From Anaerolineae bacterium (lineage in GTDB: Bacteria > Chloroflexota > Anaerolineae > S140-20), in NCBI GenBank assembly GCA_027021705.1, contig JALUTT010000120.1:7702-71701 (forward strand): 64,000 nucleotides of DNA, given 5' to 3'. The notes beneath the pieces are model-generated. The model was not told where the DNA came from and did not search any database. It was given only the letters and a program-made list of their open reading frames with translations. The position numbers were made by a program, and so were the translations under genes. The first letter of the stretch is position 1, and the number at the start of each line of letters is the position of its first letter. Below, in pieces: positions 44,922 to 46,610 of the stretch.

Positions 44922-46115
44922 GTGGAGGACCCAATGGCTGCTCGCAAGCCCCGGTTGACTTCGATGGCTCTCAAACACTTTCTGGCCTTTGAGCAGGCGC
45001 ACATCGAGCTTGCGCCGCTGACCGTGCTGTTGGGAGCCAACAGCACGGGGAAGAGCGCCATCCTCCACGCCCTGGTCCTGCTCAAACAGAGCCTGCGAGG
45101 CGGGGATTACCGTGTTCCCCTTACCTTTGGTGGCCCTCTGCTCGATATGGGACGGTTCCAAGATGTCCTCTGGCAGCAGAGCCGGCGCCTCGCCTTCCGC
45201 CTGGAGTGGGACAACGGGCAGGCTGTGGCCTTTGAGGTGGTCTCGAAACGGCGGGTAGGGCTCGTGGTTCCCAGGGAGACTTTTCGGCTTCGCCTTGCCG
45301 GTCGGGAGTACCGCTTGAAAGATGACGATGAAGCAGAGCCCTGGTACTTCTCCTTCGAGCTCGCCGGCGCGCCGGATTCAGAAAAGGCCCGTGCCTTCCG
45401 GGAGGTCAACGCCACCATCAAGGAGTTCTTCACGGCGCTGCGTTACGTAGGCCCCCTGCGGCAGTCTGCCCGCGAGACCTCTTTCTCCAGGGAGATGCCG
45501 GAGAGTGTCGGGCCGGATGCCCGTTACCTCATCCCCTTCCTCATCGCCCACCCCGATGTGACTCAACGGATCAGCGACTGGCTGCGCGACCATCGCCTGG
45601 CCGATGGGCTGGAAGTGCGGGAGACGGCGCGGGGAAGCGGACGCTGGGTCGTCTACCTCATCGAGCGGGAGATCGGGAAGCGACGCTGGAACCTGGCGGA
45701 CACAGGGTTTGGGTATTCTCAGCTTATTCCGGTCCTGGCCGAGTTGTACGCGGCTCCCCGAGGAAGCCTGATCCTCATCGAGCAGCCGGAGCTCCACCTG
45801 AACCCCCGTCTTGCGGTGGAAGTGGGAGACCTGCTTCTCGATGCCGTGGAGGAGGGCAAGACCGTGTTGGTGGAAACCCATAGTGAGCATCTGGTGCTCC
45901 GGCTGCGCCGTCGTATCGCCGAAGGACGCTTCCCGGCTCATCAGCTTGCCCTCTACTTTGCACGGCGCTCTCGGGAGGAGGGGAAGTCCTACCTGGAGCG
46001 GGTCTCCTTGGACGAATTGGGACAGCCGGTCCAGGGATGGCCCGAAGGCTTCTGGGGAGAGGACTACGAGGAGGCCTACCATCTGACACGGGCCATCCTG
46101 GAACGGCATCGCTAG
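44922..46115 (+). CDS. AAA_21/AAA_15-type ABC-ATPase (the SMC-like ATPase of OLD/Septu/PARIS/Gabija-like defence systems)
   Basis: Walker A LLGANSTGKSAILHAL. Walker B/D-loop SLILIEQPELHLNP. H-loop VLVETHSEHL. No fused nuclease domain. Confidence 0.7.
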   Translation: MEDPMAARKPRLTSMALKHFLAFEQAHIELAPLTVLLGANSTGKSAILHALVLLKQSLRGGDYRVPLTFGGPLLDMGRFQDVLWQQSRRLAFRLEWDNGQAVAFEVVSKRRVGLVVPRETFRLRLAGREYRLKDDDEAEPWYFSFELAGAPDSEKARAFREVNATIKEFFTALRYVGPLRQSARETSFSREMPESVGPDARYLIPFLIAHPDVTQRISDWLRDHRLADGLEVRETARGSGRWVVYLIEREIGKRRWNLADTGFGYSQLIPVLAELYAAPRGSLILIEQPELHLNPRLAVEVGDLLLDAVEEGKTVLVETHSEHLVLRLRRRIAEGRFPAHQLALYFARRSREEGKSYLERVSLDELGQPVQGWPEGFWGEDYEEAYHLTRAILERHR

Positions 46116-46124
46116 GATGGGACA

Positions 46125-46610
46125 ATGGGCCGACGGTGGATCGTCGTGGACACAAACATCTTCTGCTTCACGGGCTATCAGGAGGCCGGGGATCACGGTC
46201 GGCGGGAGCGGGACTACCTTGCCAAAGGTGGAGAAGCTGTGGATTTCCTGCATCGCCTGATGGAGTACTGCGACGAATATGGTCTGGCAGTGGACACGGG
46301 AGGGCTGATCGTCGAGGAGTACCAGCGCCAGATTCCCCTCGGTTCTTTTGGGCACTATGCCTTTCGCCAGATGGCTACCAGGATGCCGGGCAAGGTTCGC
46401 GCTTTCGATCCCAGGAACCCGGACTGGATGGACCAGGTGGCACGAAGCCAAGACCTGGACAAACACGATCGGCGGTTCATCGCCACAGCATTGGCCACGC
46501 CGGACAAGGTTCTGGTCTCTGAAGACACAGTGCTGTTAGAAAATGCGCCTTTTTTGGAGAGGAAGGGGCTTCACGTCTACGACGCTGAAGAAGCCAATGA
46601 GGTGCTGTAG
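46125..46610 (+). CDS. PIN-like domain protein (putative nuclease), 9 nt downstream of the ATPase
   Basis: N-terminal WIVVDTNIF (first PIN Asp), a mid-region acidic E, and DRRFIATALATPDKVLVSEDT in the C-terminal PIN Asp context. The assignment is by motif only. Confidence 0.5.
   Translation: MGRRWIVVDTNIFCFTGYQEAGDHGRRERDYLAKGGEAVDFLHRLMEYCDEYGLAVDTGGLIVEEYQRQIPLGSFGHYAFRQMATRMPGKVRAFDPRNPDWMDQVARSQDLDKHDRRFIATALATPDKVLVSEDTVLLENAPFLERKGLHVYDAEEANEVL

Follow-up and report, generated by a model that had tools for sequence, protein, structure and literature searches.

A Candidate HEC-03-Type ATPase and PIN Gene Pair Inserted in a Sugar-Nucleotide Operon of an Anaerolineae Bacterium

Overview

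The window analyzed here is a stretch of 64,000 nucleotides from an Anaerolineae bacterium (GenBank assembly GCA_027021705.1, contig JALUTT010000120.1, positions 7,702 to 71,701 of the forward strand), which belongs to the metagenome-assembled genome of an uncultured Chloroflexota. It contains two adjacent genes, both labelled 'hypothetical protein' at NCBI, of which the first encodes an ABC ATPase and the second a small protein with a PIN domain. The pair is fairly likely to be a divergent, Anaerolineae-specific member of the HEC-03-type anti-phage system, which would combine an ATPase of the NsnB/DUF3696 clade with a stand-alone, competent PIN protein. HEC-03 (Hma-embedded candidate 03; Payne et al., bioRxiv 10.1101/2024.01.29.577857; PADLOC-DB models PDLC04147 and PDLC04148) consists of an ABC ATPase and a VapC-like PIN protein. 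In E. coli, plaquing drops by orders of magnitude for at least two phages, for which both genes are needed, and its induced expression is apparently toxic (10.1101/2024.01.29.577857).

A preliminary description of the two genes had regarded them as a candidate defense module in which a PIN-like nuclease takes the place of the TOPRIM or HNH nucleases of known systems. The defense reading gains support from the homology to HEC-03, an ATPase and PIN system that has been tested against phages, whereas the implied novelty falls away because this combination is already found in HEC-03 and because NsnB of the Menshen system binds a PIN-like domain. The pair has the known architecture of HEC-03, to which Menshen and PDC-M55 come close, and does not represent a new kind of system.

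Gene Pair and Coding Status

Two open reading frames (ORFs), 9 nt apart on the + strand, had been placed at positions 44922-46610, and both are found exactly there. The ATPase ORF (44922-46115, +) comprises 397 amino acids when counted from the GTG codon at 44922, at which the start of the gene had been set. Although the ORF extends that far, the ATG codon at 44934 is the likelier start because a Shine-Dalgarno sequence GGAGGA, read off the DNA at 44924..44929 (+), is positioned 4 nt before it and because the 393-amino acid product appears in NCBI and public gene calls. The preferred gene (44934..46115, +) encodes an NsnB/DUF3696-type, HEC-03-like ATPase that is proposed as the sensor and gate component, and the PIN gene (46125..46610, +) encodes 161 amino acids and is proposed to supply the RNase effector. 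No small ORF is present between the two. Both ORFs can be considered real genes, since each protein has approximately 25 orthologues at 50% identity or above (E values down to 1e-258 for the ATPase and 1e-106 for the PIN protein) and since both are under purifying selection, with pairwise ratios of nonsynonymous to synonymous divergence (dN/dS) of 0.04-0.25 wherever dS is unsaturated. The motifs quoted in the preliminary description are all present, namely Walker A GANSTGKS, Walker B LILIEQPELHLNP, and H-loop ETHSEH in the ATPase, and VVDTNIF, IATALA, and LVSED in the PIN protein.

PIN Protein

The small protein had been taken for a PIN-like nuclease on the basis of short motifs, and fold comparison agrees with this: it is a single PIN domain, for which VapC toxins are the closest structural matches. 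No model of Pfam or NCBIfam matches the protein, and PIN profiles, including a broader one, detected nothing significant among PDB chains, so that the link to solved PINs is made by fold comparison alone. A profile search that exhaustively covered 1.84 billion representatives retrieved only two close PIN clusters and about 100 distant small proteins. Among the 61 PIN relatives placed in an alignment, the PADLOC HEC-03 PIN model recognizes 33 (best E 4e-74) and Pfam PIN_3 recognizes 21. Profile-profile comparison by hhalign aligned the PIN family with HEC-03-type PINs, including two plasmid-borne ones, over 147 columns (99.9% probability, E 1.7e-34), and the acidic positions of the two families correspond residue for residue.

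Four motifs contain the conserved positions. Motif 1 (VVDTN; 46143..46157, +) carries D9 at the end of β-1; D9 and T10 are invariant in 24 orthologues, and D9 is at least 90% conserved across the 61-member superfamily alignment. Motif 2 (D57...E64-E65-Y66; 46293..46319, +) covers the end of β-2 and the start of the next helix, and its positions are matched by D45 and E53 in the HEC-03 PIN of Aeromonas. D57 does not vary in either the orthologue or the superfamily alignment, and E64, E65, and Y66 do not vary among the orthologues. Motif 3 (D112-K-H114-D115; 46458..46469, +) lies at the N-terminus of helix 113-124, where D112, H114, and D115 are invariant in orthologues and D115 in the superfamily as well. 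Motif 4 (S132-E-D134; 46518..46526, +), just past β-4, has S132 and D134 at least 90% conserved and aligned with the xxD motif in the PINs of the plasmid HEC-03 pairs. The acidic residues D9, D57, E64/E65, D112/D115, and D134 are thus located at the canonical strand-end and helix-start positions, and the PIN protein is predicted from these retained acids to be a catalytically competent nuclease.

The resemblance to VapC, together with the toxicity of induced HEC-03 in E. coli, could also be explained by a toxin-antitoxin or addiction module without an anti-phage role, in which the PIN protein would be a VapC-like toxin, the ATPase would act as its antitoxin or chaperone, and the pair would be kept since its loss is deleterious. 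We consider this unlikely. Unlike the VapBC type II systems, the locus has no VapB-like small DNA-binding antitoxin and encodes a large ATPase upstream instead; a 393-amino acid protein with fully conserved nucleotide-binding motifs appears excessive for neutralization, and the PIN protein lacks sequence-level similarity to any solved PIN. In addition, the homologous HEC-03 protects against phage. The toxin-antitoxin and defense readings do, however, overlap mechanistically, because abortive-infection systems behave like toxin-antitoxin modules.

ATPase

The ATPase matches Pfam AAA_15 (6e-19), AAA_21 (2.4e-15), and, weakly at its C-terminus, DUF3696 (E 0.038); the earlier label 'AAA_21-type' is therefore supported by a match, although AAA_15 scores slightly better. 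Precomputed hits to DUF3696 (PF12476) are found in orthologues of the protein. With the PADLOC models, the best matches are PDC-M55A (5.2e-54), the HEC-03 ATPase (8.1e-54), and NsnB (3.2e-49) over residues 12-382, and AriA (3e-22), GajA (5e-11), and Old (1.5e-10) score far more weakly. The homologues form a tight orthologue group at 56% identity or above, beyond which identity drops to approximately 30% for a widespread 'DUF3696 domain-containing protein' family. As judged from these sequence comparisons, membership of the NsnB/DUF3696-type clade is settled, while the HEC-03, PDC-M55, and NsnB sub-families are not separable on the ATPase alone.

Conservation of the nucleotide-binding motifs was examined in a family alignment of 52 members. 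The Walker A motif GANSTGKS (45033..45056, +) occupies residues 34-41 of the 393-amino acid protein, with G34, N36, G39, and K40 invariant, and this motif is common to bona fide HEC-03 ATPases. The signature-like motif GFGYSQ (45705..45722, +; residues 258-263) has invariant G258, G260, and Q263, and the H-loop ETHSE (45873..45887, +; residues 314-318) has invariant E314, H316, S317, and E318. The Walker B motif LILIEQPELHLNP (45768..45806, +; residues 279-291) is atypical in that E-Q replaces D-E; Q284, P285, E286, and H288 do not vary, and E283 is almost invariant. The E-Q form is invariant throughout the NsnB/DUF3696-type family, and EQPE is also found in the HEC-03 ATPases of Aeromonas and Tistrella and in the PDC-M55 ATPase of Bacillus. 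It is a speculation that ATP binding, rather than rapid hydrolysis, may serve as the switch in such proteins.

An AlphaFold 2 (AF2) model with a predicted local distance difference test (pLDDT) score of 91.7 shows an ABC-ATPase head and a closing helix at residues 376-392; Rad50, SMC, PtuA (of Septu and of the retron), and OLD are its best structural matches. Neither Pfam nor the model reveals a C-terminal TOPRIM domain. The C-terminal, DUF3696-like helix (46059..46109, +) follows the WPEGFWGEDYEE motif, and from the analogous complexes we infer that it would be the docking site for the PIN protein. The other distinctive part is a β-rich insert at residues ~81-160 (45174..45413, +), which is hypervariable: its conservation, scored over 24 orthologue sequences, is 0.38-0.53, compared to 0.86-0.89 for the core, and the last 13 residues are also among the least conserved. 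This insert is a putative specificity or sensor surface.

Insertion at the pmm-tatD Junction

The pair is embedded in an operon with an epimerase gene, gmd, pmm, tatD, and a polyprenyl synthase gene as its neighbors. The left marker of the insertion junction, outside the module, is the phosphomannomutase/phosphoglucomutase gene pmm (43460..44881, +; Pfam PGM_PMM I-IV), and the right marker is the TatD-family hydrolase gene tatD (46616..47467, +; Pfam TatD_DNase 1e-86), which is ancestral in the operon. The distance from pmm to the ATPase ORF is 40 nt, and those from the ATPase ORF to the PIN gene and from the PIN gene to tatD are 9 nt and 5 nt, respectively. The guanine-cytosine (GC) content of the pair shows a mild dip (0.60-0.64 vs. 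0.66-0.71 in the flanks). Promoter and terminator scans at the junctions gave nothing beyond the expectation from shuffled sequences, and in an Rfam scan of the whole window, the sole match above the gathering threshold was a tRNA gene (24674-24756, - strand) far from the pair.

Eighty species-representative loci, all from Anaerolineae, were fetched with the pmm of the window (64-72% identical), and the genes of the window were mapped onto them. The ATPase and PIN genes are absent within 8 kb of pmm in all 80, and in most of these pair-less loci, tatD begins 3-30 nt after pmm and the polyprenyl synthase gene (ispB) comes next. From this absence and the direct abutment of pmm and tatD, it can be concluded that the ancestral order is epimerase-gmd-pmm-tatD-ispB and that the pair was inserted exactly at the pmm-tatD junction. 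The preliminary description was therefore right that the pair interrupts a coherent sugar-nucleotide operon, and the opposite case, a pair universally conserved beside pmm, is not observed, as 0/80 representatives carry it there.

In Ardenticatenaceae and Promineifilaceae, a different conserved ORF of ~155-170 amino acids fills the gap between pmm and tatD (L032 9436-9918 and L036 9516-9980, and also L046, L050, L056, L063, L065, L067, L069, L073, and L080; L numbers denote the loci compared). These ORFs were considered as PIN relatives and rejected, as they do not match PIN profiles and resemble PaaI/hot-dog thioesterases, by motif only (YGCGRLN...GYVYGGLIASLIDCH). Because they are unrelated to PIN, the idea of the pmm-tatD junction as a dedicated hot spot for defense genes was dropped. 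A three-gene module including tatD, to which the recurrent PIN-tatD adjacency in L099 could point, was likewise rejected, given that tatD follows pmm in pair-less genomes too.

The operon setting raises the possibility of a domesticated housekeeping module, in which an ATP-regulated RNase would function in RNA processing or turnover, or in nucleic-acid surveillance together with TatD, and would be tied to the expression of envelope and sugar-nucleotide genes. The pair does lie in a co-directional operon without promoter or terminator signals of its own, the PIN stop codon overlaps the tatD start codon in L003, L006, L095, and L099, both genes are under purifying selection, and in four contexts, the pair recurs by genes for a sugar-phosphate mutase, a glycosyltransferase, or a glycoside hydrolase. 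The absence of the pair from 80/80 relatives with an intact operon, however, indicates that it is dispensable for operon function, and the adjacency of tatD is ancestral rather than introduced by the cassette. Moreover, the pair diverges far faster than its flanks, with exchange of alleles and segments, its homologues occur on plasmids beside Abi and toxin-antitoxin genes, and the association with envelope genes consists of a handful of contexts. Taken together, a housekeeping role is very unlikely.

Distribution, Descent, and Allele Exchange

The ATPase and PIN genes are adjacent in every context found. In L003/L004/L005, L006/L007, L089, L090, and L092/L095/L096, the pair occupies the same slot between pmm and tatD, and the PIN proteins are 55-66% identical to that of the window. 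Elsewhere, it is located after SelA (L001), between DHDPS/Fae-like genes (L097 and L098), after an 864-amino acid phosphoglucomutase/phosphomannomutase (PGM/PMM) paralogue (L091/L105), between glycoside-hydrolase-like genes (L093/L103, with L094 as a variant of the same locus), and upstream of tatD in L099, where a WYL regulator and a type I-D CRISPR-Cas locus come next and the pair is thus at the border of a defense locus. The last of these (L099 1552-10759, GCA_034435875.1) comprises ATPase-PIN-tatD, a WYL/WCX regulator, a 959-amino acid protein, and a type I-D set of Csc2, Csc1, a Cas3-like helicase, Cas6, and Cas4. Two short DHDPS-family ORFs lie upstream and one of 419 amino acids downstream of the pair in L097 (7369-11735), and a 490-amino acid DHDPS+Fae gene lies downstream in L098 (1-3136); the cassette may have inserted into a duplicated gene there or next to one. 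Among the contexts observed, envelope or carbohydrate genes repeatedly accompany the pair, in L001, L003, L006, L095, L103, and L105. These neighbors include pmm, the 864-amino acid PGM/PMM paralogue, GT2 and GT4 glycosyltransferases, DUF2079, Glycos_transf_4, PMT_2, and glycoside-hydrolase-like proteins. A rather doubtful reading of this recurrence beside genes for sugar-phosphate mutases and polysaccharides is a functional link to loci for phage receptors (envelope glycans).

Whether the tree is built from pmm, from tatD, or from both concatenated, the genomes with the pair form a monophyletic group in 0/100 bootstraps. L003 is nested among pair-less genomes in 100/100 bootstraps, its nearest pair-less neighbors being 80-82% identical, and the window groups with L006 and L095 in 71/100 bootstraps of the pmm/tatD trees. 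The tree of the ATPase and PIN proteins groups the window with L006 and L095 (94.5%) and L003 with L090 and L091 (99%), although L091 has a different context. This pattern fits partial vertical descent plus loss and/or lateral exchange.

The term 'mobile islet', used in the preliminary description, is appropriate only in part. The inserted pair is accessory and its two genes move together, but signs of a mobile element are lacking. No integrase or transposase is present in any pair context examined, and a search for flanking direct or inverted, att-like repeats gave only short, chance-level matches inside coding regions. Viral contigs contain no relative of the PIN protein, and in phage records, the ATPase matches are partial and weak only. 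In tblastn searches of plasmids, the PIN protein had no match, and only distant relatives of the ATPase were found (~27-30% identical; HEC-03/PDC-M55). The same slot is, in addition, kept across lineages. Persistence in one operon slot across divergent lineages without mobility genes would also be expected of an addiction module, as would the presence of plasmid relatives among toxin-antitoxin and Abi genes. Strong addiction is, however, difficult to reconcile with clean loss in many close relatives, including the nearest neighbors of L003, in which pmm abuts tatD, and the hypervariable, recombining insert of the ATPase suggests the sensing of a changing external ligand.

Evidence for exchange in place comes from closely related loci. 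When L006 is compared with L095, identity is 73-87% for eight flanking genes, whereas it is 59% for the ATPase and 55% for the PIN protein, and synonymous divergence is approximately 0.8 in pmm and tatD and saturated in the pair. Because the pair is more diverged than its surroundings, with saturated dS, its alleles are older than the flanks, indicating that they were exchanged in place. On a finer scale, L093 and L094 are two variants of the same locus from one metagenome (Ga0197142), with ~89% nucleotide identity. Their PIN proteins are 95% identical (dS 0.09), and their ATPases show 51% amino acid identity and a dS of 2.6 at residues ~56-170, compared to 85-96% and 0.5-0.7 elsewhere. At the nucleotide level, identity falls to 37-56% in an ATPase block of approximately 650 nt (L093 8900-9560 vs. 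L094 4440-5100). This block is a mosaic, a recombination-imported segment spanning the ATPase insert.

Proposed Mechanism and Its Appraisal

A working scheme can be outlined for the two proteins. They are co-expressed from the host sugar-nucleotide operon, in view of the tight spacing and the lack of a terminator or promoter between them. By analogy with the AlphaFold 3 (AF3) models of the Menshen NsnB-NsnC complex and the solved PARIS and Septu complexes, an oligomer of the ATPase would keep the PIN protein inactive through its C-terminal DUF3696-like helix. A phage-derived cue may then be sensed by the hypervariable β-rich insert, and a nucleotide-dependent rearrangement could free or activate the PIN protein. 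As with VapC-type PINs, the effector would cut RNA, most likely tRNA, rRNA, or mRNA, which would arrest translation and lead to abortive infection. The cassette itself entered the pmm-tatD junction and would have been gained, lost, and exchanged by recombination rather than on a recognizable mobile element.

Several observations weigh against the assignment to an HEC-03-type defense system. The ATPase shows no preference for the HEC-03 model over PDC-M55A or NsnB, and its E-Q Walker B motif could imply slow or absent ATP hydrolysis. The PADLOC HEC-03 PIN model covers only residues 109-151 of the PIN protein (E 2.4e-5), and automated tools would probably miss the pair. Its immediate neighborhood consists of housekeeping genes, with no defense island, and the same operon slot is kept in several divergent lineages, in some of them translationally coupled to tatD, which is unusual for defense cassettes.

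A bolder and rather doubtful extension is that a defense module is kept in a core envelope-sugar operon and spreads among related Anaerolineae by homologous recombination through pmm and tatD, its specificity being re-tuned by swapping only the ATPase insert while the PIN protein is kept. If this were true, L093 and L094 would amount to a natural experiment, with their mosaic pinpointing the surface by which NsnB/HEC-03-type ATPases recognize the trigger.

The assignment to HEC-03 proposes a function class for two genes of hypothetical proteins and extends the HEC-03/NsnB-type ATPase-PIN family into Chloroflexota, where the models of Pfam, NCBIfam, and PADLOC miss or barely detect the PIN protein. 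The locus would also be a natural case of a defense cassette housed by a conserved operon of housekeeping genes, polymorphic for presence and absence and with alleles exchanged in place. Furthermore, the ATPase insert stands out as a variable, recombining, and probably trigger-sensing part, which provides a lead on how ATPases of this class could recognize infection.

Other Features of the Window

The gmd gene for GDP-mannose 4,6-dehydratase (41155-43446), which is part of the same operon, is split by a 439-amino acid intein (41524-42840) with Intein_splicing and LAGLIDADG homing-endonuclease domains, at the site YQASS|S...HN|SEMFG and with a dip of the GC content to ~0.59. In relatives, gmd is mostly intein-free; that of L006 has 1134 amino acids and probably two inteins, and L027 and L052 carry large insertions. 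A 302-amino acid P-loop protein (37715-38623, +), located 6 kb upstream of the pair, has the Walker A motif AEMGKTW and a sub-threshold match to Pfam ATPase_2 (6e-5). Downstream of the polyprenyl synthase gene, the overlapping genes for a VWA CoxE-like protein and a MoxR-type AAA ATPase (48469-50849, - strand) form an ordinary chaperone-like pair.

Comparison with Known Systems

PARIS (AriA/AriB), Septu (PtuA/PtuB), and OLD/Gabija resemble the pair in that an ABC/SMC-like ATPase gates a separate or fused nuclease, but their effectors are TOPRIM or HNH nucleases, whereas a PIN protein is present here. PARIS, Septu/retron-Eco7, and OLD are reported to act on tRNA. A closer relative of the ATPase is that of PDC-M55, a PADLOC candidate exemplified by plasmid p1 of Bacillus pacificus, which belongs to the same clade and is likewise encoded before its partner gene, with which it overlaps. 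The ATPase of the window aligns with the PDC-M55A model over its full length. The partner differs, having ~315-350 amino acids and matching PDC-M55B (2.5e-26 for that of Bacillus), which the 161-amino acid PIN protein does not. The PDC-M55 pair adjoins AbiGi/AbiGii.

Menshen (NsnABC; Millman et al. 2022) is also close. Its ABC ATPase, NsnB, carries a DUF3696 helix at the C-terminus, departs from the canonical Walker B motif, and has a GxG motif in place of SGG, and in AF3 models of the system, two DUF3696 helices clamp the PIN-like N-terminal domain of NsnC, which is catalytically dead and fused to a separate C-terminal nuclease (PMC12065111). The ATPase of the window shares the non-canonical Walker B motif, the GxG signature, and the DUF3696-type tail, and its partner has a PIN-like fold that is predicted to dock on the C-terminal helix. 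The pair might thus be a degenerate or minimal Menshen, composed of NsnB and a truncated NsnC after loss of NsnA and of the C-terminal effector domain, as the full-length match to NsnB (3e-49), the tail, and the PIN-like start of NsnC that binds such a tail (PMC12065111) would allow. This explanation is highly improbable. No gene for NsnA (ParB-DUF262) is found among the flanks in the window or in any related context examined, and the partner, unlike an inactive PIN that is joined to a BECR or another nuclease, consists of a PIN alone that keeps its acids, is under purifying selection, has no extra domain, and is homologous to HEC-03 PINs along its whole length. Since NsnA is absent, the PIN acids are kept, and no extra domain is present, the architecture of the pair is that of HEC-03 rather than Menshen.

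For the comparison with HEC-03 itself, two textbook plasmid pairs were confirmed, with E values of 1e-133 and 7e-61 for the ATPases and 3e-23 and 2e-24 for the PINs; the neighbors of one pair include AbiEii, Hok/Gef, and GASH genes. PADLOC-DB v2.0.0 and the preprint use the component letters in opposite ways: in the database, HEC-03A denotes the PIN model (159 positions) and HEC-03B the ATPase model (458 positions), and the preprint gives the letter A to the ATPase and B to the PIN. In both plasmid pairs, an RNA ligase gene directly follows the PIN gene (L108 5925-6626, Aeromonas salmonicida pAsa9-like; L110 5772-6464, Tistrella mobilis pTM2); the ligase belongs to PF09414 (3e-34 for the Aeromonas copy) and is not mentioned in the text of the HEC-03 preprint (10.1101/2024.01.29.577857). 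It could be a third, RNA-repair component of HEC-03, and its position is a circumstantial hint at an RNA substrate.

The pair of the window differs from these examples in several respects. It has no RNA ligase gene downstream, its PIN protein is only ~20% identical to the plasmid HEC-03 PINs, its ATPase has 393 amino acids instead of ~415-470, it resides in a housekeeping sugar-nucleotide operon and not in Hma or a defense island, and its clade is found only in metagenome genomes of Chloroflexota/Anaerolineae. Despite these differences, the main traits of HEC-03 are retained. Both are two-gene operons in which an ABC ATPase precedes a small, stand-alone PIN protein of ~160-180 amino acids, and the coupling is tight, as the ATPase and PIN genes overlap or lie at most 25 nt apart in every related locus, and both the order and the overlap recur in the plasmid pairs of HEC-03. 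The ATPases share GxNxxGKS, the EQPE Walker B motif, the ETHSE H-loop, and WPxxFFGED before the C-terminal helix, and the PIN families have their acidic positions in common and are homologous by profile-profile comparison.

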